Shown: positions 4,104 to 63,755 of the stretch, in pieces
Layout: the number at the start of each line of letters is the position of its first letter
Numbering within the stretch: the stretch's first letter is position 1
From: an uncultured Eubacteriales bacterium
GTDB taxonomy: Bacteria; Bacillota; Clostridia; Christensenellales; CAG-138
DNA length: 64,000 nt
NCBI GenBank assembly: GCA_902768795.1
Contig: CACXMS010000004.1
Span: forward strand, 109,479 to 173,478
Direction: 5' to 3'
Notes under the pieces: generated by a model
The model's input: only the letters and a program-made list of their open reading frames with translations
What the model was told of the DNA's origin: nothing
Database searches by the model: none
Position numbers and translations under genes: made by a program

Positions 4104-4553
4104 TCAATCTTTTTTGAGCGGAATCCAGATGCTTACGGTCATCTCCTGTTCGCCCTCTTTCGGCGGAAGGTAGACCTCGATATCATATTCTCCCGCAAGA
4201 GAATACCCCTGCAGCGCGGGCAGCCATTCCGACCGGATCTTTGTGTCGGTATCCTGCAGCGAGTGCACCGTGCACGGGAACTGCGCCCAGCAGCTTCCGG
4301 GAATCACCCGGGTTTCACAACCTTCCGGGATATCCTCCCACGGAAAATACAGATCCGCGATCCAGTAATCAAAGTCCTTTCCTTTCATATCGAGGCAAAC
4401 GCCGAAGGTTCCCATGATCGAACGCTTCTCGCCCTGCGCCAGCCATTCATCCCAAAACTTCGGTATTTCCTGATAACTCGTATCCGAATTGAACGGTCTT
4501 TTCACGCCGACAATCGTAAACGGCGCTTTTTCAACAATACGGTAATCCAACAT
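4104..4553 (-). CDS. GyrI-like small-molecule-binding domain protein
   Basis: 149 aa. The N-terminus resembles the effector-binding domains of AraC/MerR-type activators (SbmC/GyrI-like fold). Confidence 0.65.
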   Translation of the reverse strand: MLDYRIVEKAPFTIVGVKRPFNSDTSYQEIPKFWDEWLAQGEKRSIMGTFGVCLDMKGKDFDYWIADLYFPWEDIPEGCETRVIPGSCWAQFPCTVHSLQDTDTKIRSEWLPALQGYSLAGEYDIEVYLPPKEGEQEMTVSIWIPLKKD

Positions 4554-4590
4554 CGTTCCACCCTCTGTTTGTTTCGGAAGCGTCCGCCGC

Positions 4591-5469
4591 TTACCGATAA
4601 TACTGTTCGAGAAAGGTGTAAACGTCTTCGCGCGTGCCCATGAACGGACCGGGGGTCTCCATTTTCAGCGAAACGAGCGCCGCCGCGAATTCGAGCGCCT
4701 CGGGGATCTCATGCGTAAGCCGCTCGATCAGGTAGCCCGCAAACGTCGTATCGCCGCGGCCGGTGCGCCCGGCCAGCCCGCGCGGACAGAGCTTCGAACG
4801 GTAAATGCTTCTGCCGTCGCAGACGATCGCTTCGGTGTTGTGCGTGATCAGCACTTCCTGCGCGCCCCATTCGCACAGCAGAAACGCCGCTTTTTCCCGA
4901 TCCGCCGTTCCGGTCAGCACCTCGGCCTCGGCCGCGTCGGTTTTGAGATAGCGAATCAGCGGCAGAAGCTCCCGCTTCTCCTTCCAGTCGCGAAGCTCGA
5001 GCGTCCCGTCGTCGTTGCGGCAGCGCAGCATGGCCTGCACGTCGAGTCCGACGTCGCCGCGCTTCTGACACGCTTCGATCAGATCGCCGCCCATGTCCCC
5101 GGCGACCAGTCCGCCGAGATGATAGATCTTCGCTTCCGCGTCCGGCAGGTCGGCCGGCGTATACGGCTCGATGCCCTCGGTGTTCAGCCCGCGGCGCCGC
5201 TCGCGGTCCGGCGTGAAATACGTGTTCTGCATGACCGTGCAGGTCGGGGAATCGACCGGGAAAATGCGTTCGACCTTGCTTTTGGCAAAGACCGCGTACG
5301 GATCCAGCCGCGCGGCGTTGCCCTTCGGCACGACCGCGACCCGCCCGCCGATCGCGGCGGCGGCATAGCCGGAGAACGTGACCGCGCCGCCCGCGATGTA
5401 TTCCTCGCGGCCGTCATAGTCGATGTTGTGATCGAGCGTCATCTGCCCGATAATCATGGAATCAAACAT
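4591..5469 (-). CDS. PfkB-family carbohydrate/nucleoside kinase
   Basis: C-terminal GRTGRGDTTFAGY anion-hole/ATP motif typical of ribokinase-like PfkB kinases. Start trimmed to MFDSMIIGQ... (ATG at 5469), which overlaps the upstream gene end. Confidence 0.8.
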   Translation of the reverse strand: MFDSMIIGQMTLDHNIDYDGREEYIAGGAVTFSGYAAAAIGGRVAVVPKGNAARLDPYAVFAKSKVERIFPVDSPTCTVMQNTYFTPDRERRRGLNTEGIEPYTPADLPDAEAKIYHLGGLVAGDMGGDLIEACQKRGDVGLDVQAMLRCRNDDGTLELRDWKEKRELLPLIRYLKTDAAEAEVLTGTADREKAAFLLCEWGAQEVLITHNTEAIVCDGRSIYRSKLCPRGLAGRTGRGDTTFAGYLIERLTHEIPEALEFAAALVSLKMETPGPFMGTREDVYTFLEQYYR

Positions 5470-22823: not shown

Positions 22824-23969
22824 TTACGGATCGATCTCCAGTTCTTTGAGCAGCTTCACGCGCTGCGCGCCGCGCTCATAGTCCTTTCCGAGCTGCGCGC
22901 CGTTTCGCTTCATCCGAATGCCCTGCCCGATGTATCGGAAAATCTGATAGATCCAGCAGAACGGCTTCAGCCACCGGTGCTTGCGGTACGCTTTCCAGTT
23001 GTCCTCTCCCGCCTGTTGCAGATATCGGAAAACGCCCTTCTGCCGCAGATTGGCAACGGCGGCTTCCACCCGCCTGCCGTCCGGACGCTTGAAACCGAAA
23101 TTGCCCGACAAAAACACGCTCTCCATCAGCTCCTCGCAGAGCTGCGGATCGGCGTCCCGACACCAGGTGAGCCGCTCCGAAAGCCCGAGATACCTTTGGC
23201 AAAGCCGCGTCGCCACCACCGCGATCGTCTCAAGGCCGCACGCCCGCGCCGCCGCGCCGAACGCGCTCTCCCAAAAAGCATCGTCCAGCTCCCGGTCCGC
23301 ATACAGCATCCAGTCAATGATCTGCCTCAGCCCGAGCCCGACGCGAAGATGCTGCCCCATGTGCGTCAGCAGCACCAGCCCGTTTTCGAGCTTCGGCAGC
23401 ATCGGAAACGATGTGCCGAGAAGCCGGGCGGTCTCGGCATGCTCCGCGCCCTTCTGGATATACGATTCCGTGACCGTTTCGCCCTCGCAGAAAAACCGGT
23501 GCATCTCAAACAGCACGTTGTCCCGGATCACGTCGATGTGCCGCGGGTACGTCGGATCCTCCCGGACCGTGTATCCGCTCTGCAGCAGCAGCGCCCTCGC
23601 GCGGTCAAAATGCGCTTTCGGCACCAGAAAATCGATGTCCCCCGTCGTACGCCGGGCCGGATTCGGATAATAGATCGCCGCGGCCGAGCCCTTGAGAATG
23701 ACCGCCGGAACGCCGTTTTTCTGCAGGATCGCGCAAAGCGCGCTCTGATAGTGCAGACTGCGGATCACGCCCGCCGTGACGGTGTTCAGGTGTTCCTTCC
23801 AGGCCCGCCGCACGTCCTCCGGCGCCGCGTCGATCGCAAGACCGAGCACGGCCTGCTCCTCGGCTTCCCGCAGCACCGCGTTCCAGTCCGTGTCCGCGGG
23901 AATCCCGTGATTCGTCTGAAACAGGGAATTCTGCAGAATCTGCAGCAGCGTCTGTTGTGCCTGTGTCAT
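22824..23969 (-). CDS. uncharacterised nucleotidyltransferase-family protein (NTP_transf_5-like)
   Basis: 381 aa. GDIDFLV and DVIRDNVLFEMH resemble the PF14907-type nucleotidyltransferase fold. Assignment from memory of the family. Confidence 0.5.
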   Translation of the reverse strand: MTQAQQTLLQILQNSLFQTNHGIPADTDWNAVLREAEEQAVLGLAIDAAPEDVRRAWKEHLNTVTAGVIRSLHYQSALCAILQKNGVPAVILKGSAAAIYYPNPARRTTGDIDFLVPKAHFDRARALLLQSGYTVREDPTYPRHIDVIRDNVLFEMHRFFCEGETVTESYIQKGAEHAETARLLGTSFPMLPKLENGLVLLTHMGQHLRVGLGLRQIIDWMLYADRELDDAFWESAFGAAARACGLETIAVVATRLCQRYLGLSERLTWCRDADPQLCEELMESVFLSGNFGFKRPDGRRVEAAVANLRQKGVFRYLQQAGEDNWKAYRKHRWLKPFCWIYQIFRYIGQGIRMKRNGAQLGKDYERGAQRVKLLKELEIDP

Positions 23970-30443: not shown

Positions 30444-31613
30444 TTATCTATTGCCTTTTGCCCGATTGTGCGTTTTGCAAAGCATCTGACAGTTGGAAGC
30501 ATCCGTAGCCCCGCCATGGCTCCATGCTGTAACATGGTCCGCATCCATTTCCGTAATCTTCCATATCTTTTTGGCGTTTGCCTCAGGTCCTATTGCACAA
30601 AGCGGGCAATTTGAGATGTTTTCATTCTTTGCTTTCTCTGTTTGTACTTCATAGACCCTACGTTTTACACCTTCATCAAACACACGAACATCAAGAAGTT
30701 GCGGTTCTGTCTCCCCTCCGAGAACATAAGCAAAAATGTTGCGCCGATTATTCACATAGGGGTCTTGCATCAATTCTTTCACGCGGTTATTGATTGCGGT
30801 CCGGTCGTAAGCGGTCTCGTGGTATTTATCATAGTATTCTCCCCACGGAAGTCCGCGCACTTCGCTATCTGTGTAATCAAATAGCCCACCAATCCAATCA
30901 ATGACGGATTCAAAATGGTTTTGCAATTCTGCAATACTTGTATCATTTCTGTGTTGGCTCATGTACTGTTGAATGTTTCCATGCGACACCCACTCCAAAG
31001 CTGCCTTCAACACGTCTTGTCTCTTTGGATCGCCCTTGATATAAGTTAGCCATTTGTTCATGTTGGCATTGAGAGAATTTGAAAATACGCGACGCGCGGC
31101 TGTTACAAACGGTCCGTGATAGGAAGCATTCAACCGTTCCTGATCGTTTAACGGCTCACCCTTAATGTTTACTGTCTTAAACCACTTGTCGATTTCAGAG
31201 GGATCCCCTTCACAAACATAAACCACCATTTCCGTATCAAGAATTTTTTGTTGCATGTCAGGAGACAAGCTGTCAAAGTATCTCGGATTCCCTTCTTCAT
31301 CAGGAACGGAGAAAGGGTAAGTTGTGTTTACAAAACGCCCAAACGAAGTGATGCGTTGTTGTCCGTCCAACACTTCATACTTGTCCTCTCCCGTTTTAAC
31401 AAAGTATAACAAGCCAAGCGGGTAACCAACCATCAAAGATCGAATAACATCAACGTCTTTCCCGCCCTTATCATAGATGTAATTTCTCTGATACTCAGGT
31501 TGGATTGTCAGCTTGCCATTCAAGCCGAACAAGCCCTTGCCTTCCGCTTTACTGAAAGTGAAGCCCTTGCAAATATCGCGCACGGTCCATGTTGTAACAA
31601 GTGTTTTATTCAC
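30444..31613 (-). CDS. DUF262 (ParB-like NTPase/nuclease) protein with C-terminal HNH nuclease motif
   Basis: N-terminal [11 protein letters not shown] and [10 protein letters not shown] (the DGQQR signature of DUF262). C-terminal CPLC...[32 protein letters not shown] (HNH). About 40% GC. Confidence 0.75.
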
Positions 31614-32733
31614 AGCAGTAACCCTTCTTTCTTCGAATCAGAATACGTTTATACTGACCTTCACCTTTAACAACAGGAGCGTCGAATCGCGTGTGTGGAA
31701 GCTTTATCCCTTCTAATCTGCCATCACCGCCTCGATCTGTTGTCCAAACGATCTCGAACTGTTCAGGATTATATTTGTCTAAAAAAGAAACAGGAACCCC
31801 CATTATCCCATCATAATCCGAAGGAATTGCTTCCGTAAAAGGTACTTCTATTGCATCATAGTTTTCATATTTCGGGTACTTGGTGGAATCTCCAAACTTC
31901 TTTTCAAGTCGCTTAATCAGTGTTTTATTATATTTCAAATTATCAGCCATAGTCATTAGCTGTAAAGGTTCATGTCTTTTTCCGTGGTCAATATTCGTAT
32001 ACCAAAGGCAACTATTAGTCGCTACAATGCGTTTCCCGTTTTCTACTCTTGCTTCGGTTCCGTATAATTCATAATCAGAAGGAACAATAAAGCCGGAAAT
32101 CCATCTTCCCATGCCTGTTCCTAACCACATTTTGTTTTCTTTTAGATAAGGGAATACATCTTTATAGGTGATCGAATTGATGCTCGCAATAAACAAAAAC
32201 TGTTTCCCACTCTCTATTACCCACGAAAAAAACTCACTAAACAGGGTATTGAACGGTGGATTTGTGATTATAAAATCGGCTTCATCACGAAGCTTTGTAA
32301 CCTCAGCGCTCCGGAAATCACCATCACCTTCTAAGTATTCAAACTCCAAATCTTTATGGTCTATTCTTCCCGATCCGTCCACATCTCTTTCCAAAACGTA
32401 CTTTCTCCCATGCTGTTCATGTAATCTTTCATCATAGATAGGGGATGCTGTTTCAAACAAGCTCAGTTGATGAACATTCGCCCATCCTTTGGCGTAAGAA
32501 GTGGAAACAAGCTTTTTAATACCGAACCGCTCAAAGTTGGCCGCGAAATACTTGGTAAAATTGCTCCATTCAGGATCGTCGCAAGGAAGAAGGATAACTT
32601 TATCTCTGAACACATCGGGATTGAAGTCAACATAAGCATTGACTTCTTTTTCAATGTCCTCGTATTGTGTATAAAACTCGTTTCTATTTGCGGTCTTTGC
32701 GCTTGATAAGACGTCTTGTCTCGGCATTTTCAA
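31606..32733 (-). CDS. N6-adenine DNA methyltransferase (NPPF motif)
   Basis: Catalytic motif IV ITNPPF. N-terminal [13 protein letters not shown]...ILLPCDD resembles EcoRI-methylase-like family members (from memory). Overlaps the DUF262-HNH gene by 8 nt. Confidence 0.7.
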
Positions 32734-33468: not shown

Positions 33469-33606
33469 TTACAGATCGTCCGAATCTTCCGGGGGCTCCG
33501 GGGGAACCGTTACTTCCGGCGTAATGGGCTCAAAGTCGGATGTGCAAATTATGTCCGAAAAGTTCAGACGCAGAACGGTCACTTTTGCTTCTTCATACTG
33601 TTTCAT
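33469..33606 (-). CDS. 45-aa peptide MKQYEEAKVTVLRLNFSDIICTSDFEPITPEVTVPPEPPEDSDDL (speculative)
   Basis: Short ORF between the 1073-aa surface protein and the PT-rich protein. Weak resemblance to the leader peptides at 60-63.7 kb. Confidence 0.3.
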   Translation of the reverse strand: MKQYEEAKVTVLRLNFSDIICTSDFEPITPEVTVPPEPPEDSDDL

Positions 33607-55340: not shown

Positions 55341-55426
55341 AAGAAAAGACGGTTTTCTCCGTCTTTTCCACCTGCAAGTATTCTTGTCACAAACAGATGC
55401 CGCAAAATGGTCCGGGCCCTTTATTA
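55341..55426. repeat. convergent-gene spacer element, copy C
   Basis: AAGAAAAGACGGTTTTCTCCGTCTTTTCCACCTGCAAGTATTCTTGTCACAAACAGATGCCGCAAAATG... Confidence 0.65.
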
Positions 55427-56326
55427 ACAGTCTGAGCCGTTTCGGAGCCGCTGCTCGATCGCCGCGGTCTCCCGGATTCCTTTCAGCTTTCTCGTCGCGT
55501 GGACGATCATCCAGAGCGCGATCCCGGTGACCGCCGCCGATACCGCGATGCCGAAGCCGCGGTTCATGTTCTGCCGGAACAGCTCGTCGGTGCCGAAATG
55601 CCGCAGCATCGTGTTCTGCAGAATGAAGATCGACATCAGCGCCGCCGACAGGTTCAGAAGCTTTGACGCCGACAGCAGCGGACGGTCGCTTTTCCGGAAC
55701 TTGACAAGCTGCAGGATCGCCGCCGTCAGGCGATAAAACGCCCAGAGCCCCGAAACATACATGACCGCCGAGAGTGAAACGCGGTCCGCGCCGCTTTGCA
55801 GCGACTGCAGGATCACGAACGTCATGGAAACGTCGAGCACCAGAAGCTGCCAGCCGCAGCTCCGGTACTTTTGCCACGCCTTCTGCGCGCCGCCGCGCCG
55901 GCCGGAAATCGTGCCGAACACGAGCAGGATGCGGATCAGCGACAGCACAAGGTAATAAAACGCTTCGGCGGCAAACAGCAGCGTGCGGTACCGCGCCGCG
56001 GCGAACAGCTTGAACACCGCGTACGCGAGGTTGATCAGCGTGCCGATCCCGAGCGTCACCTCCGAGCGCAGCTCCGCCGCGTCCAGGTACGTTTCGCTGT
56101 ACGTCAGTCCCTTTTGCGCGCGCCGCCGCATCCGCAGCAGGCGCGGAATCATCAGAAGCAGCATCAGCGCCAGTCCTCCGCCGACCGCATAGCTGACGAC
56201 CAGCATCGGCTGCGGCGAAGCGTCGATCGCGTTCGACAGCGCGATCAGCAGCAGATACAGCGGCCCGCCGATCAGAACGGCCAGCGTCAGCAGCACCAGA
56301 ATAAAACGGATCAAAAGCGGGCGCAT
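55424..56326 (-). CDS. multi-pass membrane protein (function unknown)
   Basis: 300 aa, about 8 hydrophobic segments. Confidence 0.5.
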   Translation of the reverse strand: MRPLLIRFILVLLTLAVLIGGPLYLLLIALSNAIDASPQPMLVVSYAVGGGLALMLLLMIPRLLRMRRRAQKGLTYSETYLDAAELRSEVTLGIGTLINLAYAVFKLFAAARYRTLLFAAEAFYYLVLSLIRILLVFGTISGRRGGAQKAWQKYRSCGWQLLVLDVSMTFVILQSLQSGADRVSLSAVMYVSGLWAFYRLTAAILQLVKFRKSDRPLLSASKLLNLSAALMSIFILQNTMLRHFGTDELFRQNMNRGFGIAVSAAVTGIALWMIVHATRKLKGIRETAAIEQRLRNGSDC

Positions 56327-56390: not shown

Positions 56391-57257
56391 TCAGATCGTT
56401 CCGGTCACAACGACGGTCGTAACGCCCGGAACAAACGAAACCGCGCCGGTCGCCGGATCCTGCGTGTAGGTCGCGGCGGGAACGGTCAGCGCCGTTGCGG
56501 CGCCTTCCGCCGGCAGCGTGAGCACGTTGTTTTCAAACGTGAAGTCCGTTTCGGGTACGGCGACGCCGTCGACCGTGACGGCAAGGTCATTCAGCGGCGT
56601 CATAAACGCGTCGGTCAGGACGAGATCGACGGCTTCGGTGTTGCCGGTATTTGTGACGGTAAACGTATTCACAAGCGCGGCGCCGTCGGCGACCGGGTTC
56701 GGACTCATTTCCTTTTCGATCGTGACGGCGGCATACGCCTCCGCCGGAATCGTGTGCGACGCGGCGATCGGCTCGGCGCCGACAGCGGGCGTGAACGATG
56801 CGGTGTTGGTAATCTCGCTGCCCGCAAGCATCGGCGCGTATTCGTTCGGCTCGGCCTTGTAGAGGATCGTCGCATTCGATCCGGGCGCGATCGCCGGGAT
56901 CGTAAACGTCACGCTGCCCTCCGTAATCGCCGGCGTCAGTTCGGCGGAAAACACGCCGTCGAGGTACAGCTGCGCCGGGCCGATATAGGTCAGCGGCGTC
57001 GCCTGCGCGCCGGTCTGCGGCGCGTACGTGCCGAGATCGTCCTCGATCGTCACGTTCGAAAGCGCGGTCGAAGAACCGTTCGTCACCGTGATGACGTACG
57101 TGATCGGTTCGCCGCCGCGGTAGGCCGTCTCGAGCGAAGATTTTGTTACGGTCAGCGGATCGTTCAGCACGGTGCTCGCAAGGTTCGAAGCAACGGTCTC
57201 GGTCACGGCGCCGTACGTGTAGCGAAGATTCGCGCGGTTGGTAATGGTGGTTGCCAT
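56391..57257 (-). CDS. DUF11/conserved-repeat-domain protein without signal peptide
   Basis: Two repeats of the L(T/V)(V/I).K.......G..(I/V).(Y/F).(I/V)TV.N.G...(L/V)..V...D pattern. The N-terminus MATTITNRANLRYTYG has no hydrophobic signal. RBS AAAGGAGA. Confidence 0.55.
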   Translation of the reverse strand: MATTITNRANLRYTYGAVTETVASNLASTVLNDPLTVTKSSLETAYRGGEPITYVITVTNGSSTALSNVTIEDDLGTYAPQTGAQATPLTYIGPAQLYLDGVFSAELTPAITEGSVTFTIPAIAPGSNATILYKAEPNEYAPMLAGSEITNTASFTPAVGAEPIAASHTIPAEAYAAVTIEKEMSPNPVADGAALVNTFTVTNTGNTEAVDLVLTDAFMTPLNDLAVTVDGVAVPETDFTFENNVLTLPAEGAATALTVPAATYTQDPATGAVSFVPGVTTVVVTGTI

Positions 57258-57370: not shown

Positions 57371-57402
57371 AAAAAACGCTGTCGCGCGGCCGGAGCCGCG
57401 CG
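57371..57402 (-). terminator. Rho-independent terminator closing the radical SAM operon
   Basis: Minus-strand reading CGCGCGGCTCCGGCCGCGCG-ACAGCGTTTTTT, 15 nt after the stop of the last radical SAM gene. Confidence 0.7.
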
Positions 57403-57416
57403 ATGCATTCATTTAT

Positions 57417-58742
57417 TTAAGCGTTGTCGTTTGCCAATGCGTTCCGCATGCCGAGCGAAAGGTTCATCGCATGCATTTCGCGGCAGCCGTAATCGGAAAC
57501 CGAGCAGCCGGAAAACGGCGTGCAGAGCGGCAGGTAGGGGCAGTTTCTGCATTTTTCCTGCCCGCTGTCGATCCTGCCCATGGCGTCCCAGCGTTCCCGG
57601 TCGGTAACACCGTCCCAGATGTTTCCGAACGACTTGTCTTCCTCGCAGTGCTCGCAGGCATACAGCTTTCCGTCCGGCGCAATCACGATTTCCCGGCCCC
57701 TTCCGTCCGCCATGCAGCCGTATAATTTCATACGGTCCGGGAAACCGTCAAAGTTCGGGGGAAATCCGGATTGCAGCAGATACCTGTCCGCTTCGATGAT
57801 TTTCTGATGCAGCTCCGCTTCCCGATCGGACATGCGCGAGGCAAAGAGCTGCGGAAACGCGATCCGCACTTTTTCCTTATCGGGAATCATACGCGCCGCG
57901 TCCGCAACAAAATCCGGGATCCGGTCCGCGTTTTCCGAATCGACGTTGCACCCGAGCAAAACCTGAATCCCGTTTTTCGCCAGGATTTCCGCATTTTTCA
58001 GAATATCGAAATACTGATTGCCGTAAACCGGGTACTGCTTCCGGCTCCGGTAAACCGCTTCGTCTCCCTCCATCGAAATCTGGACATGGTAGGTTTTCCA
58101 CAAACCGAGCATCTTTGAAAGGACGGAATCGTCGATCAGACTGCCGTTCGTGACGATCGAGGAACGGAAATCCACGCCTTCTTCCGTCAGCCGCCGCGAA
58201 ATCGCGTCGATGATCTGCGGGCGGGTCAGCGGTTCGCCGCCGAACCAGGAGAGCGTGATTTTGACCCGGTCCCGTTTCGTATCCAAAATGAAACGAACGG
58301 CCTGCTTTGCGGTTTCCTCCGACATCGAAACGATCCGATAGCCCTGCTCAAAGCAATAGACGCAGCGCGCGTTGCATCCGGTGGTCGGAAGGATCGTGTA
58401 CTTGAAATACCCTTCCTTTTCGTCCCTTTTCCGGAGCAGAAACAGGGTGCTCCGGTAAAACGCTTCGTCCTGAAAATCGACCGGCACCAAAAAATAGCGC
58501 TGCATCAGCCAAAAAAGCTGCGGGTCTTTTTCCACCGTTTCCGCGGAAAAGACGGAATCGGAAAAGCGTTCGTTCCGCAGAAGAACGCATTGCGTCGTCA
58601 GAGTGTGAAACAGGACCGTATTTCCGTCCTTTTCTTCCCAAACGCAATAGATCGACCGGCGGTACGAAGCCGACGGTTTGAGTTTCTGCTCTCCGATCAG
58701 GGACCGGAACGCGCTGTCTTGCTTTTGAATTTCTTTTCGCAT
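57417..58742 (-). CDS. radical SAM/SPASM peptide-modifying enzyme, paralog 1 (441 aa)
   Basis: CNARCVYC (CxxxCxxC) about 120 aa from the N-terminus. C-terminal Cys-rich SPASM-like region (CMADG...ACEHC...CRNCPYLPLCTPFSGC). The start overlaps the stop of paralog 2 by 1 nt. Confidence 0.85.
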   Translation of the reverse strand: MRKEIQKQDSAFRSLIGEQKLKPSASYRRSIYCVWEEKDGNTVLFHTLTTQCVLLRNERFSDSVFSAETVEKDPQLFWLMQRYFLVPVDFQDEAFYRSTLFLLRKRDEKEGYFKYTILPTTGCNARCVYCFEQGYRIVSMSEETAKQAVRFILDTKRDRVKITLSWFGGEPLTRPQIIDAISRRLTEEGVDFRSSIVTNGSLIDDSVLSKMLGLWKTYHVQISMEGDEAVYRSRKQYPVYGNQYFDILKNAEILAKNGIQVLLGCNVDSENADRIPDFVADAARMIPDKEKVRIAFPQLFASRMSDREAELHQKIIEADRYLLQSGFPPNFDGFPDRMKLYGCMADGRGREIVIAPDGKLYACEHCEEDKSFGNIWDGVTDRERWDAMGRIDSGQEKCRNCPYLPLCTPFSGCSVSDYGCREMHAMNLSLGMRNALANDNA

Positions 58743-60058
58743 CAGAACTCGTTTTCCTCAATCACTTTTTTAAACCCGCATTCCACCTGATACGCGGGAA
58801 GCACGTCGCATTGGGGATTCTTAAAGGGACAATCCTCAAAAGGCGTGCAAATGGGCAAATAGGCACAGTTTTCGCATTTTTCTTTGATCTTGCCGATTCG
58901 ATTCCGTTCTTTCCATTTTTCGGAATCGGTTATGCCGTTCCTGACATCGCCGAACGAAGTGCCTTCAATGCAATCCGAACAGCCGAAAAGCCTGCCGAGC
59001 GGATCTATGGTGACGCTTTCCGTTGTTCCATCATTCGGGCAGAAGAAAAACGGGACACAAGCAGGAAAATCATCAAATCGATAGGAGAATCCCATCTTAT
59101 GCGCGATATCGGCAAGTTCGAACGCCTTCTTCCAAAGAATTTCTCCGTGCATTTTTCTTTCCTGGAAAAGAGGCGCAAAGTAAACTTTCACTTTGGACGG
59201 TTCTCTGATCGCCTGTTTCAGATCGCCGAGGAACTCTTCCCCCTTGTCAATATTGTCCAAGTCAACATTGCACCTGATCACGGGCTGAATGCCGTTTTGA
59301 GCCAAACCGTTGACCGCTTCCATAACCGAATGATACTCGTCATGGTAATGATAATAATTTCTTCGTTTGATATACTCCTCTTCGGCGCAGTCCATGGAAA
59401 TCTGAACCAATTCAGTCGCCCATTCATGCTTCATTTTCCAAATGATTTTATCGTTGATCAGACTGCCGTTTGTAATCATGCACGAAGAAAAATCAATCTC
59501 CTCGTTTCGTAAACGATCCGAAATCAGATCAATGGCTTTTTCTCCCAAAAGCGGTTCTCCGCCATACCAGAACAACTGAAGTTTTGTGTTCTTCCGAAGG
59601 GTGGCAACGATAAAAGAAGCTGTCGCAAGCGCCGTTTCCTCTGTCATGGTTACTTTCCTCATTCCCTCTTCATAGCAATAAGGACATCTTGCGTTGCAGC
59701 CGCTTGTCGGCAAAATATAATAAATGGGGTATCCTTTCCCTCCCCGAAGCAAGCGAAGCATTTTATATATGCTGTAATAATTCTGACTTTCATTCAAGCT
59801 TTCTTTCACATAAAACCAGTCTTCCGTCAGAATCTTCAGTTCGGGATCCTTTTCGATTTCCGATCCCAAAAGCCGCTTTGGAAGCGACCGCAGGTCCAAC
59901 TGCCGGCATTGGGTTGTCAGGGTATGATACAAATACAAATGCTTCTCCGTTTCTTTCACAACAACGAAGGAGGAAAGCTTATACACAAGATCGACGCACA
60001 GTTTCTGTGCGCCGATTGTCTTCTTGATAACTCTATACGGTCTTTTTAATTCTTTCAT
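58742..60058 (-). CDS. radical SAM/SPASM peptide-modifying enzyme, paralog 2 (438 aa)
   Basis: CNARCPYC. C-terminal CPNDG...GCSDC...CENCAYLPICTPFEDC. Starts 3 nt after the stop of precursor 1. Confidence 0.85.
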   Translation of the reverse strand: MKELKRPYRVIKKTIGAQKLCVDLVYKLSSFVVVKETEKHLYLYHTLTTQCRQLDLRSLPKRLLGSEIEKDPELKILTEDWFYVKESLNESQNYYSIYKMLRLLRGGKGYPIYYILPTSGCNARCPYCYEEGMRKVTMTEETALATASFIVATLRKNTKLQLFWYGGEPLLGEKAIDLISDRLRNEEIDFSSCMITNGSLINDKIIWKMKHEWATELVQISMDCAEEEYIKRRNYYHYHDEYHSVMEAVNGLAQNGIQPVIRCNVDLDNIDKGEEFLGDLKQAIREPSKVKVYFAPLFQERKMHGEILWKKAFELADIAHKMGFSYRFDDFPACVPFFFCPNDGTTESVTIDPLGRLFGCSDCIEGTSFGDVRNGITDSEKWKERNRIGKIKEKCENCAYLPICTPFEDCPFKNPQCDVLPAYQVECGFKKVIEENEF

Positions 60059-60061
60059 AAA

Positions 60062-60217
60062 TCAAGCCGTATGGTACGAACCCGTGCAGGTATAATAAAC
60101 ATTCGCGTTGCAGGGCGTGGGCTCCGGCGTATCGGTCGGGGTCGGCTCGCCGCTTGCGGTAACGACGTCGTTCGCCAGGCTTTCGACGTCCATTTCAGGC
60201 GTGAAATATTTTTCCAT
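60062..60217 (-). CDS. candidate RiPP precursor 1: MEKYFTPEMDVESLANDVVTASGEPTPTDTPEPTPCNANVYYTCTGSYHTA
   Basis: 51 aa from the internal ATG with RBS AAAGGAG. Shares its leader with three other sORFs and lies directly upstream of a radical SAM gene. Confidence 0.75.
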   Translation of the reverse strand: MEKYFTPEMDVESLANDVVTASGEPTPTDTPEPTPCNANVYYTCTGSYHTA

Positions 60218-60277
60218 AAACTCCTTTTTCCCTTTCTTTTTTTCTGTATTCAAAAACAGGGCATTGTTCCGAAGCGA

Positions 60278-60409
60278 TCAATCAAAATAGACGCCGGGGG
60301 TATACGATTTCAACGTGCAGGGCGTGGACTCCGGCGTAACGCCGCTTGCGGTAACGACGTCGTTCGCCAGACTTTCAATGTCCATTTCCGGCGCTGTATA
60401 CTTTTTCAT
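60278..60409 (-). CDS. candidate RiPP precursor 2: MKKYTAPEMDIESLANDVVTASGVTPESTPCTLKSYTPGVYFD
   Basis: 43 aa with the same leader. Promoter-like TTGACA-17-TATGAT lies upstream. The RBS is weak. Confidence 0.65.
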   Translation of the reverse strand: MKKYTAPEMDIESLANDVVTASGVTPESTPCTLKSYTPGVYFD

Positions 60410-60440
60410 AAACGCTTCTGATTTCTCTTTGTTTTTTATT

Positions 60441-60469
60441 ATCATACGCAAAATACAGCTTCCTGTCAA
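60441..60469 (-). promoter_or_regulatory. sigma-70-like promoter (TTGACA-17-TATGAT) upstream of precursor 2
   Basis: Minus-strand TTGACA (60469-60464) and TATGAT (60446-60441) with a 17-nt spacer. Confidence 0.55.
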
Positions 60470-60486
60470 GTCCCGCGTGCTGCCGC

Positions 60487-61821
60487 TCATTTGCTTTCCG
60501 GGGCGGATTCGATCCTTGCGATCAGGTTTTCAAAACCCTGCGTTACGACGCGTCTCGGCTTTTCTTTGCAGTCTTCCTCTTCATGCGGACATCTGGAAAA
60601 CGGCGTACAGAGCGGCAGATAGGGGCAGTCTTGGCATTTTTTCCGGATCTCGCACAGTTCGTTGCTTTTTTTCCAGTTCTCCTGCTCCACGATCCCGTTC
60701 CGGACGTCGCCGTACAGGGCGTTCGGAATGCAGTCATGGCAGCCGTAGAGCTTTCCGTCCTGCGCGACCGTGATTCTGCCGCTTGCTCCGTCGAAAGAGC
60801 AGTAAAAAGGAAGGATATGAGAAGGCAGATCCGAAAATTGTCTCGAGAATCCTTCTTCTTTAACGAGTCTGTCCAGCTCGTAGGTTTTCTCCCAAAGCAA
60901 AGGCGAATCTTCCCGGCCTCTTGTTTCAACCAAAGGCTCAAAATAAACGACGACTTTGGAAGGATCCTTCACTTCCTTTTTCAGATCCCGCAAAAATCCG
61001 GCTCCTTCTTCCACGTTATCCCAATCGACGTTGCAGCGCACATAGGTCGCTATTCCGTTTTCGTTCAACGCATTGACGTTTTTCATGACGGAACAGTATT
61101 CGTCGTGATAGGAATAATAGTTCTTTCTCCGGATGTATTCCGCTTCTCCGGCGTCCATGGAAACCTGAACGGTATGGATGTTCCACCGTTCCTTCATTTT
61201 TTGCAGGATCCGGCTGTTGATCAGACTGCCGTTTGTCAGCATCGTTCCACTAAAAGGAACCTGATGCTCCCGCAGATAATCTGAAATCAGATCAATCTTC
61301 TTTTCTCCCAGCAGCGGTTCTCCGCCGAACCAGAACAGAACGATTGTTTCATTTTTACGATGCGTTTCCGCGATAAACTTTGCTGTCTGCAGGGCGGTCT
61401 CTTCCGTCATGCTTTTATGCTGCATCTCCTCATGGATACAGTACACGCACCTTGCGTTGCATCCGTTGGTCGGATACAAGATATAATTGTAGTATCCGCT
61501 TTTCGATTCAAGCGTTCTTAAAATACGCCAAAACCCGTAATAAAATTCGTTTTCATCTGTCCCTTTTTCGACATAAAACCAATTCTTCACCATCGTTTCC
61601 AGATCCGGCCGACCGGTAAGCTCCTCCGAAGAAACGGATTCTTTGAGAACGGTTTTTTCAAGCTGCAAGCATTGATGCGTAAAGGTATGAAACAGATACA
61701 GATACCTGTCCGATTCCTTTTGAACGGCAAAGCGGGACAGCTGATATTCCTTGCCGGACTGAATCGTCTGCGCGCCGATGATCCTGCCGAACCGGCGGTC
61801 TTGTTTCTTGATTTCTTTCAT
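60487..61821 (-). CDS. radical SAM/SPASM peptide-modifying enzyme, paralog 3 (444 aa from MKEIKKQD)
   Basis: CNARCVYC. C-terminal CSFDG...GCHDC...CQDCPYLPLCTPFSRC. Start chosen by alignment with the paralogs (an upstream in-frame ATG at 61896 is possible). Confidence 0.85.
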   Translation of the reverse strand: MKEIKKQDRRFGRIIGAQTIQSGKEYQLSRFAVQKESDRYLYLFHTFTHQCLQLEKTVLKESVSSEELTGRPDLETMVKNWFYVEKGTDENEFYYGFWRILRTLESKSGYYNYILYPTNGCNARCVYCIHEEMQHKSMTEETALQTAKFIAETHRKNETIVLFWFGGEPLLGEKKIDLISDYLREHQVPFSGTMLTNGSLINSRILQKMKERWNIHTVQVSMDAGEAEYIRRKNYYSYHDEYCSVMKNVNALNENGIATYVRCNVDWDNVEEGAGFLRDLKKEVKDPSKVVVYFEPLVETRGREDSPLLWEKTYELDRLVKEEGFSRQFSDLPSHILPFYCSFDGASGRITVAQDGKLYGCHDCIPNALYGDVRNGIVEQENWKKSNELCEIRKKCQDCPYLPLCTPFSRCPHEEEDCKEKPRRVVTQGFENLIARIESAPESK

Positions 61822-61947
61822 GGATTTTGTCCTTTGCCTTCGATTTCGCAGCGTTTGAATGCGTCGGAAATCCGCCCTGAACCGCTTCAAAAGCATCGGC
61901 GCACAATAATGTGCGCCGAAAACCTTCCGTACAATGTTCTAACGTGA

Positions 61948-62094
61948 TTAATCACTCCATGTGCAAGAATGAACCTGTGTCAACGTGCAGGGCGTGGGTT
62001 CCGGCGTGTCGGTCGGCTCCGGCTCGCCGCTTGCGGTAACGACGTCGTTCGCCAGACTTTCAACGTCCATTTCAGGCGTTAAATACTTTTTCAT
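61948..62094 (-). CDS. candidate RiPP precursor 3: MKKYLTPEMDVESLANDVVTASGEPEPTDTPEPTPCTLTQVHSCTWSD
   Basis: 48 aa, below the ORF-track cutoff, found by manual translation. RBS AAAAGGAG and promoter TTGACA-17-TATTAT upstream. Confidence 0.75.
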   Translation of the reverse strand: MKKYLTPEMDVESLANDVVTASGEPEPTDTPEPTPCTLTQVHSCTWSD

Positions 62095-62123
62095 AAAATG
62101 CTCCTTTTCAATCCTTTTTTAAA

Positions 62124-62152
62124 ATAATATATCGAAAGACATCCTTTGTCAA
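62124..62152 (-). promoter_or_regulatory. sigma-70-like promoter (TTGACA-17-TATTAT) upstream of precursor 3
   Basis: Minus-strand TTGACA (62152-62147) and TATTAT (62129-62124). Confidence 0.6.
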
Positions 62153-62221
62153 GCCCGAATATATGCGCCGGAGCGTTTTTTAACAGTTCGATCGGCAAAT
62201 GTCCGATTCCGGTTCCGTCTT

Positions 62222-63535
62222 CTATTCGTTTTCCGCGATGATGCGCTCAAGCCCCATATCGATCTCGTGCATGGGAAGCGCTTTGCAGTTCGCCTGCACG
62301 TGCGGACATTTGGAGAACGGCGTGCAGAGCGGCAGACAGACGCAGGTTTTGCACTCTTCGCGGATTTCACAAATCTCGTTGTGACTGTTCCACATCTCCT
62401 TGTCGACGACGCCGTTCCAGACGTCTCCGAAAGAGGTCCCTTCGACGCACGCTTCGCATGCGAGCAGGCGGCCCTCCGTATCAATCACAACGCCTTCCTG
62501 GCCGTCGCTCATGCATTTGTAAAGCGTAAAGAAATTGGGCAAATGCTCAAAGCGATTGGCAAACCCCTCTTCGCGTACGACGTGATCCAACCGGAACACA
62601 TTTTTCCAGATGCTGTCCCCGTCCGCGGCTCTCGACTGATGCAGCGGCGCAAAATACAGGGGAACTTTGGACGGCTCGCGGACCGCTTTCTTCAGATCGC
62701 GGATAAACTCCTCCGCGTATGCGATATTGTCCATGTCAACATTGACTCTGACCATAACGCCGACGTCGTTTTGAACCAGTTCGTTGACTTTCTCCATGAT
62801 GGTGAAATATTCGTTGTGATAAGAATAATAATTCTTTCTCCGGATATATTCCTGTTCTCCGCAGTCCATGGAAATCTGAACGAGGTCCATCTTCCAAAGA
62901 TCGTGCATTTTATGAATGATGCGTTCGTTGATCAGACTTCCGTTTGTGATCATATTGGAAAAATAATCAATCTTCTCATTTTGCAGATATTCCGTGATCA
63001 GATCGATCTTTTTTTCTTCAATCAACGGTTCTCCGCCCCACCAGGTCAAACAAATTTTTGCCCCTTTGCGATGGGTGGAAGCGATATATGCGGCGGCTTG
63101 CCTGGCGGTTTCCGCTTTCATGGACCGTTTTTTCATGTCCTCCTCGATGCAGTAAACGCATCTGGCGTTGCATTTGCTGGTCGGATAAATGAGATAGTGG
63201 ACAAATCCCTTTTCCGCCCGGAATGCTCTCAGAATTTTGAATACGCTGAAATACTGCCGGCTCTCGTCGTAATCCTGCTTGACATAGAACCACTCCTCCG
63301 TCAGCTTTTTGAGATCGGGATTGTTTTCAATCTCCTCGGCCGACAGTTGCTCCCGCATCAGATCCCGGTCCGTCTGATAGCATTGTTTTGTCAACGTATG
63401 AAACAGATAGAGATGGTTCTCCGTCTTTTTTGCAACGACAAAGCGGGAGCGGCGATACATAGTATCGGCGCACAATTTTTGTGCGCCGATAAATTTCCAC
63501 ACAAGCGGAACTTTCTCTTGTAATTCCCTCATCAT
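62222..63535 (-). CDS. radical SAM/SPASM peptide-modifying enzyme, paralog 4 (437 aa from MMRELQEK)
   Basis: CNARCVYC. C-terminal CMSDG...ACEAC...CKTCVCLPLCTPFSKC. The ATG lies 1 nt after the precursor 4 stop, and the longer track ORF overlaps the precursor. Confidence 0.85.
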   Translation of the reverse strand: MMRELQEKVPLVWKFIGAQKLCADTMYRRSRFVVAKKTENHLYLFHTLTKQCYQTDRDLMREQLSAEEIENNPDLKKLTEEWFYVKQDYDESRQYFSVFKILRAFRAEKGFVHYLIYPTSKCNARCVYCIEEDMKKRSMKAETARQAAAYIASTHRKGAKICLTWWGGEPLIEEKKIDLITEYLQNEKIDYFSNMITNGSLINERIIHKMHDLWKMDLVQISMDCGEQEYIRRKNYYSYHNEYFTIMEKVNELVQNDVGVMVRVNVDMDNIAYAEEFIRDLKKAVREPSKVPLYFAPLHQSRAADGDSIWKNVFRLDHVVREEGFANRFEHLPNFFTLYKCMSDGQEGVVIDTEGRLLACEACVEGTSFGDVWNGVVDKEMWNSHNEICEIREECKTCVCLPLCTPFSKCPHVQANCKALPMHEIDMGLERIIAENE

Positions 63536-63536
63536 A

Positions 63537-63689
63537 TTATGCGGTATAATATGGGTTGTGACCGTAGACATACGTCATCGTGCAGGGCGTGGGCTCCGGC
63601 GTGTCGGTCGGCTCCGGCTCAGCGCTTGCGGTAACGACGTCGTTCGCCAGACTTTCGATATCAATTTCAGGCGTCAAATATTTCTTCAT
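63537..63689 (-). CDS. candidate RiPP precursor 4: MKKYLTPEIDIESLANDVVTASAEPEPTDTPEPTPCTMTYVYGHNPYYTA
   Basis: 50 aa, below the ORF-track cutoff, found by manual translation. RBS AAAGGAG and promoter TTGACA-17-TAAACT upstream. Confidence 0.75.
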   Translation of the reverse strand: MKKYLTPEIDIESLANDVVTASAEPEPTDTPEPTPCTMTYVYGHNPYYTA

Positions 63690-63726
63690 AAAAATATTAT
63701 ACTCCTTTCGCTCTTTTAGCTCAATG

Positions 63727-63755
63727 AGTTTATCTCATAAGTCTTGTTCTGTCAA
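63727..63755 (-). promoter_or_regulatory. sigma-70-like promoter (TTGACA-17-TAAACT) upstream of precursor 4
   Basis: Minus-strand TTGACA (63755-63750) and TAAACT (63732-63727). Confidence 0.55.

Follow-up and report, generated by a model that had tools for sequence, protein, structure and literature searches.

A compact cluster of four precursor peptides and four radical SAM enzymes

The window analysed here is a 64,000-nt stretch of contig CACXMS010000004.1 (assembly GCA_902768795.1, positions 109,479 to 173,478 of the forward strand) from an uncultured Eubacteriales bacterium of the rumen, in the GTDB lineage CAG-138. On its minus strand, four small open reading frames (sORFs; P1 to P4) and four genes for radical S-adenosylmethionine (radical SAM) enzymes of two types (E1 to E4) are packed into 6.3 kb in the order P4-E4-P3-E3-P2-P1-E2-E1. 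Each sORF encodes a shared leader followed by a variable core, and the sORFs are very probably precursors of ribosomally synthesised peptides with post-translational modifications (RiPPs) that radical SAM enzymes modify. Our overall reading, to which we give a probability of about 0.5, is a compact RiPP cluster in which a cysteine thioether is the favoured modification. The features of the cluster, including the predicted RiPP recognition element (RRE) domains of the enzymes, are listed in Table 1.

Table 1 Features of the precursor-enzyme cluster, and lengths of the Pro/Thr/Glu stretch in P1, P2 and their strain variants
Feature	Positions	Strand	Length	Description	Basis
P4 precursor	63537..63689	-	50 aa	leader MKKYLTPEIDIESLANDVVTAS, insert AEPEPTDTPEPTP, core CTMTYVYGHNPYYTA; full peptide MKKYLTPEIDIESLANDVVTASAEPEPTDTPEPTPCTMTYVYGHNPYYTA	ORF translation, GGAG ribosome-binding site
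E4 maturase	62222..63535	-	437 aa	predicted RRE-radical SAM-SPASM maturase, from ATG at 63535; E2-type clade	
P3 precursor	61948..62094	-	48 aa	core CTLTQVHSCTWSD	
E3 maturase	60487..61821	-	444 aa	predicted RRE-radical SAM-SPASM maturase, from MKEIKKQ; E2-type clade	
P2 precursor	60278..60409	-	43 aa	from MKKY start; insert GVTPESTP, core CTLKSYTPGVYFD	
P1 precursor	60062..60217	-	51 aa	from MEKY start; core CNANVYYTCTGSYHTA; stop 4 nt ahead of E2 start	
E2 maturase	58742..60058	-	438 aa	predicted RRE-radical SAM-SPASM maturase	
E1 maturase	57417..58742	-	441 aa	second-type predicted RRE-radical SAM-SPASM maturase; start overlaps E2 stop by 1 nt	
Promoter-like site	63727..63755	-		5' of P4, TTGACA-17-TAAACT	consensus match only
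Promoter-like site	62124..62152	-		5' of P3, TTGACA-17-TATTAT	11/12
Promoter-like site	60441..60469	-		5' of P2, TTGACA-17-TATGAT	11/12
Recurrent hairpin	63464..63490	-		AUCGGCGCACA-loop-UGUGCGCCGAU, about 45 nt past P4 stop, within E4 coding sequence	z = -5.6
Recurrent hairpin	61896..61919	-		P4-type copy, about 30 nt past P3 stop, ahead of E3 start, then UGCUUUUG; non-coding	z = -5.1
Recurrent hairpin	59990..60016	-		P4-type copy, about 45 nt past P1 stop, within E2 coding sequence	z = -3.6
Terminator-like hairpin	57382..57403	-		GC-rich hairpin and T-run right after E1 stop	
Stretch, P1			13 residues	GEPTPTDTPEPTP	
Stretch, P1 strain variant			11 residues	GEPTDTPEPTP	
Stretch, P2			8 residues	GVTPESTP	
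Stretch, P2 strain variant			7 residues	GVPEPTP	

Sigma-70-like matches (10-11/12) were found ahead of P4, P3 and P2, and the terminator-like hairpin after E1 likely marks the end of the cluster. Together these sites suggest three transcription units in a cluster spanning approximately 57382-63755. The MKKY start of P2 was favoured because the promoter match ahead of it falls within a longer 70-aa reading frame. Shine-Dalgarno-like GGAG sequences precede P4, P3 and P1, with a weaker one before P2. A recurrent hairpin of 11-13 bp follows P4, P3 and P1, its two coding copies both encoding IGAQKLC, and a weaker form was found at the equivalent place in the nearest relative of the cluster, the RUG416 locus (L011; see below). 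The hairpin may control the ratio of precursor to enzyme, as an attenuator or by stabilising the mRNA.

Precursor peptides share a leader and differ in their cores

An earlier note on this DNA had reported the four minus-strand sORFs, and re-examination placed them at the same positions with translations exactly equal to its peptides. It had also remarked that P3 and P4 were absent from the open reading frame track; both are shorter than 60 aa and were thus missed by that 60-aa track. The arrangement that it had proposed, RiPP-type precursors (leader plus variable core) adjoining radical SAM/SPASM maturases, was likewise recovered.

The shared leader in the window is M-[K/E]-K-Y-x-x-P-E-h-D-h-E-S-L-A-N-D-V-V-T-A-S. 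As the earlier note had claimed, its DNA hardly differs among the four copies: the 27-nt string GCTTGCGGTAACGACGTCGTTCGCCAG is perfectly conserved in each of them and was found 0 times in 100 shuffles. Leader identity is 82-91% at the protein level and 85-92% at the DNA level, whereas the adjacent enzymes have strongly diverged (37-52% in protein, 49-63% in DNA). Downstream of the leader, the Cys that follows TP is the sole residue invariant across the four precursors. The cores open with CTMTY, CTLTQ, CTLKS and CNANV, carry one Cys or, in P1 and P3, two, and contain the aromatic triplets YVY, HNP, YYT, WSD, YFD and YHT, a motif too loose to serve as diagnostic.

The precursors of the window were present on at least 22 independent metagenome contigs, indicating that they are conserved and not chance reading frames. 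The identical P3 peptide was recovered from at least 22 contigs (36 blocks in the index), and P4 from several, with the core variants CMSTYVY... and ...GHNSYYTA. A P4 query against 5.8 billion proteins returned only nine relatives (48-78 aa), all variants of the four core types. When 1.84 billion representatives were searched exhaustively with a profile, 30 of the 32 matches were leader-starting peptides of 31-70 aa, and the two long proteins among them aligned only via Pro/Thr-rich segments. The leader motif, for which the earlier note had considered that it might mainly be the N-terminus of larger unrelated proteins, was thus nearly confined to peptides of 31-78 aa.

Radical SAM/SPASM enzymes of two types

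All four enzymes (437-444 aa) had Pfam matches to Radical_SAM (PF04055, E 1e-12 to 1e-15) and Fer4_12. In an alignment of 22 sequences (the four enzymes and 18 homologues), the CxxxCxxC motif (C121/C125/C128) was invariant, as were eight C-terminal Cys at positions 340-417, where the SPASM criterion is at least seven. The Pfam SPASM match itself was below threshold in E1 only (18.9 against 21.5 bits).

The best full-length NCBIfam similarity was to the TIGR04463, CefB, Clo7bot and geopeptide maturase models (80-119 bits against cut-offs of 400-600), with enzyme residues ~33-413 aligned to model positions ~4-397 at E 1e-22 to 1e-34. To our knowledge, the chemistry of these four maturase families has not been established. 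Secondary matches, to the core domain, were to PapB, DynA, QhpD, SCIFF, CcpM and cyclophane-forming enzymes. Models of known sactipeptide and ranthipeptide synthases (PapB, SCIFF, RumMC, StsB, CcpM and QhpD) scored 35-85 bits against cut-offs of 340-720, and the cyclophane family models (GrrM/OscB, YhhB and AmcB) 36-50 bits against 310-445.

An AlphaFold2 model of E2 (mean predicted local distance difference test score 88.8) was compared with known structures using Foldseek. The top match was CteB (5WGG/5WHY, E 9e-18, 441-465 aligned columns), followed by TigE, anSME and SuiB, and the family alignment profile matched CteB at E 1e-22. The model aligned through the SPASM domains of CteB, TigE and anSME. 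Its residues 25-105 form strands and then helices, and it aligned over the full length to the RRE-bearing CteB and TigE, so that an N-terminal RRE-like domain is predicted in the enzymes as the putative leader binder. The RRE of CteB has been described with bound peptide, and TigE is a cyclopropylglycine synthase that acts on valine without involvement of Cys (PMC10878394). The structural neighbours therefore fix the enzyme class and not the reaction. We also considered whether the SPASM Cys count could show if auxiliary cluster I has a substrate Cys as a ligand, as it does in CteB; the eight invariant Cys fit either arrangement.

E2, E3 and E4 share 46-52% identity with one another and 37-38% with E1. 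In the nearest relative, the RUG416 locus, a module of two precursors, an E2-type enzyme and an E1-type enzyme lies between pgi and a glycerophosphodiester phosphodiesterase gene, and no other RiPP-related genes were found around it. In a neighbour-joining tree, E1 paired with the second RUG416 enzyme (57% identity) and E2/E3/E4 with the first (54% for E2). The cluster in the window thus corresponds to a RUG416-like module (P2, P1, E2 and E1) plus two further E2-type precursor-enzyme pairs. In most other loci of the family, one enzyme is accompanied by one to three precursors. In a variant of the RUG416 lineage, which is 99.5% identical and occurred in three samples, one core is lost and both enzymes are intact, which mildly favours two non-redundant steps per peptide over one enzyme per peptide.

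A mostly rumen family with Cys-rich cores

A total of 1,469 homologues of E2 were detected at E<1e-20. Scanning species-representative genomes with the enzyme gave 78 loci, almost all in metagenome-assembled genomes of rumen Clostridia, plus cultured strains. The cultured carriers are Ruminococcus flavefaciens YL228, ND2009 and YAD2003, Ruminococcus sp. YRD2003, Sarcina sp. DSM 11001 and Erysipelotrichaceae NK3D112, with strains of the Hungate collection included. The 'ranthipeptides' of the Hungate1000 survey were defined by the SCIFF rule TIGR03973 and are another family (PMC13289728).

An iterated hidden Markov model (HMM) of the leader, run on all sORFs of the 78 loci, recovered 91 unique peptides, mostly just 5' of the enzyme on the same strand, with the leader pattern M-x-K-Y-x-x-P-x-h-E-h-h-x-h-x-x-(D/E)-D-V-I-x-T-S. 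Cys was present in 86 of the 91 cores and accounted for 10.6% of core residues, and the aromatics were less frequent (Y 3.1%, W 1.7%, F 1.7%, H 1.4%). The first Cys stands 0-3 residues past the leader T-S in 64 of the 91, and single-Cys cores usually show D/E 2-6 residues past the Cys.

The same leader also precedes cores without Cys. Two such peptides (L100 187-1679 and L101 139-1631) lie beside genes for a 163-aa protein and a ScmC-family protein, on contigs that break off before a radical SAM gene could come into view, and a third (L094 216-679) lies beside a stand-alone PqqD-like protein, as judged by eye. The latter was the only relative, and a distant one, found by scanning metagenomes with the precursor alignment. 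The leader thus serves beyond Cys-containing cores. The Cys-less relatives, with their YxxP leaders, Gly-first cores and D/E at 7-9, were considered as lasso peptide precursors. This idea is unsupported, because two loci show the 163-aa and ScmC-family genes after the peptide and no lasso cyclase. No lasso cyclase or B2 protease was found among the most frequent neighbour families checked in Pfam, the remaining families being unannotated.

Elsewhere in the window (33469-33606, minus strand), another sORF, the fifth, joins a related leader to a Pro/Glu/Thr-rich tail that lacks Cys, MKQYEEAKVTVLRLNFSDIICTSDFEPITPEVTVPPEPPEDSDDL. It matched the leader HMM at E 1.3e-5 among 12,858 sORFs and has an AGGTGA ribosome-binding site. 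Its neighbours encode a 1121-aa surface protein and a membrane-anchored protein of 159 aa that is rich in Pro, Thr and Glu; no radical SAM gene lies close to it.

Frequent partners of the enzyme in the wider family are HPr-kinase-like genes (32 loci), small S24-like peptidases (29 loci) and ABC exporters (18 loci); the L100 gene in the HPr-kinase-like position has a ScmC-family Pfam assignment. None of the HPr-kinase-like/ScmC-like, S24-like peptidase and ABC exporter genes was found beside the cluster of the window or in the RUG416 locus. An uncharacterised nucleotidyltransferase is also a frequent neighbour, and several related loci have homologues of PF14907 near the radical SAM gene. This is the sole co-occurring family with a homologue in the window, where a lone NTP_transf_5 gene (22824-23969, minus strand; PF14907, E 4e-39) lies 35 kb away without RiPP-like neighbours.

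With ten family members as queries (E<=10), no curated precursor model was found in NCBIfam or Pfam, and one related precursor weakly matched the NCBIfam paeninodin model (E 0.13). Literature searches, literal leader strings included, found no published description of the leader or the enzyme family; the only paper found for FlmE/OhkG concerned peptide arginases in orphan pathways (PMC12703449) and was uninformative.

The Pro/Thr/Glu stretch is an insertion of the window lineage

The earlier note had described a linker ending in TPC between leader and core. Such a stretch is present in the window lineage but is not a family feature, as RUG416 is without it and most related precursors carry the Cys within three residues of the leader. 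In the RUG416 precursors, MKKYIAPEMTIQDFSKDVIVTSGCSTTHIHDPYYR and MKKYVAPEINVQNFEKDVIVTSACTSYYNSHQGTYYA, the Cys stands one residue past the leader (VTSG-C and VTSA-C). Because RUG416 and most related precursors place the Cys right past the leader, we read the stretch as an insertion. Its length ranges from 7 to 13 residues across paralogues and strains (Table 1); on these alignments, it is a lineage-specific and length-tolerant insertion between leader and Cys. A flexible spacer is the simplest reading. In other family members, whole Cys-less cores are Pro/Thr/Glu-rich, often with (D/E)-T-P-E, so the stretch may descend from such a core and retain some function.

Leader homogenisation and turnover of the cores

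The near identity of the leaders had been attributed in the earlier note to constraint or concerted evolution, and codon identity and deletion variants support this, with recombination as the mechanism. Among columns with an invariant residue, the same codon was used in all four copies at 17 of 22 in the precursors and at 26 of 101 in the enzymes (Fisher p ~1e-5). The predicted leader-binding domains of the enzymes are 30-52% identical, no better conserved than the rest, and because of this low identity the near-identical leader DNA is not explained by enzyme recognition alone.

Two kinds of deletion between adjacent leader copies were found, both with the junction in paralogous leaders. In the window lineage (L095), the P2 leader is fused to the P1 insert and core, between the end of E3 and the start of E2. 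In the RUG416 lineage (L096-L098), leader a is joined to core b by a clean 123-nt deletion. A hybrid peptide with the P2 leader and the P4 core (P0002, on a 958-bp Logan contig) was not counted as evidence; it may be an assembly chimera across a 34-nt exact repeat, because non-adjacent cassettes would have to recombine.

Comparison with a strain that is 98% identical over 4 kb (L089) showed uneven divergence. E4 differs by 0.2% and E3 by 0.7%, and the P4 core by 8%, the P1 insert by 19% and the P1 core by 31%. On these comparisons, the cores are the fast-evolving part and vary far more between strains than the enzymes. In the proposed picture, the repeated leader DNA is homogenised by recombination and also mediates the loss or exchange of core cassettes.

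In the same strain, divergence rises sharply across positions 4510-4762 (against 59990-60277 of the window): it is 18-31% from the P2-P1 spacer through the P1 core and 9% in the opening 68 nt of E2, at which point the contig stops. Either this segment has recombined or is hypervariable, or the P1-E2 unit as a whole is a diverged allele.

Proposed mechanism and its alternatives

In the proposed mechanism, the predicted N-terminal RRE of each enzyme would dock on the shared leader, as the K-Y-x-x-P motif and the domain architecture suggest; the K-Y-x-x-P-E-h part of the leader resembles the YxxP motif bound by PqqD-type RREs. The Pro/Thr/Glu-rich stretch would present a short core, rich in Tyr, Trp and His, with the invariant Cys first. 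The enzymes would abstract a hydrogen atom from a core residue, a property of their class, and the resulting carbon would most likely join the Cys sulfur, as in sactipeptides and ranthipeptides, giving a single macrocycle in each peptide, or a pair in those with a second Cys. Such a bond is suggested by the enrichment of Cys right past the leader and by the fact that thioether synthases and maturase models for Cys-rich peptides are the closest matches; we put the chance that the invariant Cys forms a thioether at slightly below even. The two enzyme types (E2/E3/E4 and E1) would probably take different or sequential steps, as both types also occur together in the nearest relative.

Several observations weigh against this overall reading. 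No enzyme reached a curated NCBIfam cut-off (best 119 against 525 bits), so that function is not transferable from a known family. Identity to CteB is only ~16%, and the second-closest structure, TigE, uses no Cys (PMC10878394). The cores of the window have no acidic residue within 8 positions of the Cys and thus lack the PapB C-x3-D/E motif. Peptides with the same leader and no Cys make up 5 of the 91 and the majority of matches from the search of 1.84 billion representatives, so the chemistry of the family need not involve Cys. Finally, no protease, exporter or immunity gene was found in the cluster or in the nearest relative.

The C-terminal ends of the cores bear on where a crosslink may form. 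Cores of the subfamily end in aromatic-x-x(-x), namely YYTA, YHTA, WSD, YFD and YYD, with YYR and YYA in RUG416. PapB reportedly joins Cys to the C-terminal residue (PMC12373016), which makes a near head-to-tail macrocycle conceivable, as a speculation. A radical SAM crosslink of unprecedented kind, from the sulfur of the leader-proximal Cys to Tyr, Trp, His or the C-terminal residue, would give a macrocycle spanning nearly the whole 13-16-residue core, installed by two cooperating enzyme types and accompanied by a recombining leader cassette that swaps and diversifies cores within one rumen species; as a whole, this picture seems doubtful.

The same aromatic ends raise the alternative that the side chains of Tyr, Trp or His are crosslinked by C-C, C-O or C-N bonds, as in triceptide-, darobactin-, dynobactin- or streptide-type cyclophanes, with the Cys serving as the first residue after leader removal, a transient auxiliary Fe-S ligand or a disulfide partner. 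All subfamily cores end in aromatic-x-x or aromatic-x-x-x with further Tyr and His inside, the aromatic positions are retained in strain variants, AmcB, YhhB, GrrM/OscB and DynA are among the NCBIfam matches, and SuiB, which forms a Lys-Trp crosslink, is among the structural neighbours. However, the cyclophane models match more weakly and over the core domain (36-68 bits) than the full-length Cys-rich-peptide models (93-119 bits), and Cys (10.6%), rather than the aromatics, is the hallmark of cores adjacent to homologous enzymes. We consider crosslinking of the aromatics without a Cys thioether unlikely.

It is also rather improbable, in our view, that each peptide undergoes two chemistries, with one enzyme type (for example E1) modifying the Cys and E2/E3/E4 crosslinking the aromatic part, or vice versa, to give bicyclic products. 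Both types are kept paired in the window lineage and in RUG416, and the RUG416-lineage variant keeps both with a single one-Cys precursor. In most other loci a single enzyme copes with several diverse precursors, so the presence of a second type points to another function, and two radical SAM enzymes are described as cooperating in the biosynthesis of thuricin CD (PMC12093266). But the peptide-to-enzyme ratios of 2:2 in RUG416 and 4:4 here fit one dedicated enzyme per peptide equally well, and the one-precursor variant is a recent deletion (99.5% identical background) in which the second enzyme may not have decayed yet.

That the sORFs are no precursors at all, and instead are regulatory upstream reading frames or chance frames in repeated intergenic DNA before radical SAM genes with another substrate, would fit the missing protease, exporter and immunity genes and a reading of the hairpin conserved after three sORFs as an attenuator, yet is highly improbable given leaders and cores conserved as peptides across strains and a second lineage, 91 related sORFs beside homologous enzymes in 78 loci, ribosome-binding sites and promoter-like sites of their own, and a predicted N-terminal RRE-like domain of a kind typical of peptide-modifying enzymes.

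Comparison with known systems

The predicted RRE-radical SAM-SPASM layout and a Cys-containing core encoded directly upstream are shared with the thioether-forming CteA/CteB system for thermocellin in Clostridium thermocellum. Unlike that system, from whose enzyme those described here differ at ~16% identity, the window has unrelated precursors, four precursors with four enzymes of two types, and aromatic-rich cores. PapB (freyrasin) and the SCIFF maturases are radical SAM/SPASM enzymes that also make Cys thioethers; the PapB model matches the radical SAM core (E 1e-19 to 1e-24), and many single-Cys cores of the wider family, with D/E 2-6 past the Cys, resemble its C-x3-D motif. The differences are the score (69-85 bits against a cut-off of 340, over part of the model), one or two Cys instead of six, and the lack of an acidic residue near the Cys in the window. 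SCIFF cassettes consist of a precursor and an enzyme, are widespread in Clostridia and have no known activity (PMC13289728), which makes them the nearest analogy to the minimal gene set of the window. The TIGR04463, CefB (Cys-every-fifth), Clo7bot and geopeptide maturases have the best full-length HMM similarity, with scores far under the cut-offs and other partner peptides.

Multiple precursors and radical SAM enzymes also occur together in the ruminococcin C and thuricin CD (TrnC/TrnD) loci. Ruminococcin C combines several paralogous precursors (RumC1-5) with more than one radical SAM maturase (RumMC1/2) in a gut Firmicute (PMC10470295, PMC8188230), and each peptide has four thioether links (PMC8188230). 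These loci differ from the window in that the RumMC model scores 35-42 bits against 720 and the leaders are unrelated, and they have been linked to antimicrobial activity. Triceptides and other cyclophane systems (GrrM/OscB, YhhB, AmcB and DynA) resemble the window in their radical SAM/SPASM enzymes and aromatic-x-x motifs, above all C-terminal ones, but their models score 36-68 bits against 310-450 over the core domain only, and an invariant Cys and Cys enrichment are not theirs. The likeness of K-Y-x-x-P-E-h to the PqqD-type-RRE-bound YxxP of Firmicute lasso leaders (paeninodin family) is at the level of the motif only. With the SynChlorMet (Scm) cassette, the wider family shares the HPr-kinase-like/ScmC-family partner, whereas the cluster in the window is without accessory genes.

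Neighbouring genes outside the cluster

Two minus-strand genes directly downstream were considered as members of the cluster and rejected: a 288-aa DUF11/CLIPPER-repeat protein gene without an obvious signal peptide (56391-57257) and a gene for a 300-aa multi-pass membrane protein without a Pfam match (55424-56326). Both were excluded because tblastn found neither in the 78 related loci, the nearest relative included, and because of the terminator-like site after E1; they are conserved among contigs of the source species. Elsewhere on the minus strand (30444-32733), an EcoRI-type adenine methyltransferase gene (PF13651, E 2e-117) lies beside a GmrSD-N/HNH endonuclease gene, likely a restriction or defence module. 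Outside the window, 5' of the cluster in some contigs of the same species, a gene for a TPR protein with a TIR_2 domain lies beside one for a small ribbon-helix-helix protein (L001 1320-3230 and L002 765-2210; 636 and 481 aa) and is possibly a defence gene.

Implications for RiPP evolution in the rumen

Leader-guided radical SAM enzymes are among the chief sources of new peptide-cyclisation chemistry. The general kind of system described here, leader-guided and of the radical SAM/SPASM class, is known, and this variant is new: it represents a sizeable, mostly rumen family for which we found no curated model or published description. One leader with four very different cores and two enzyme types is a natural specificity experiment, and its size suits full combinatorial co-expression. 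If the chemistry is a known thioether, the cluster would provide four new small macrocycles and an engineering-ready leader; if it is new, an additional reaction class. The homogenisation of leaders, the deletion of cassettes and the fast turnover of cores between 98%-identical strains make the cluster a concrete case of how a RiPP library evolves in a gut community.

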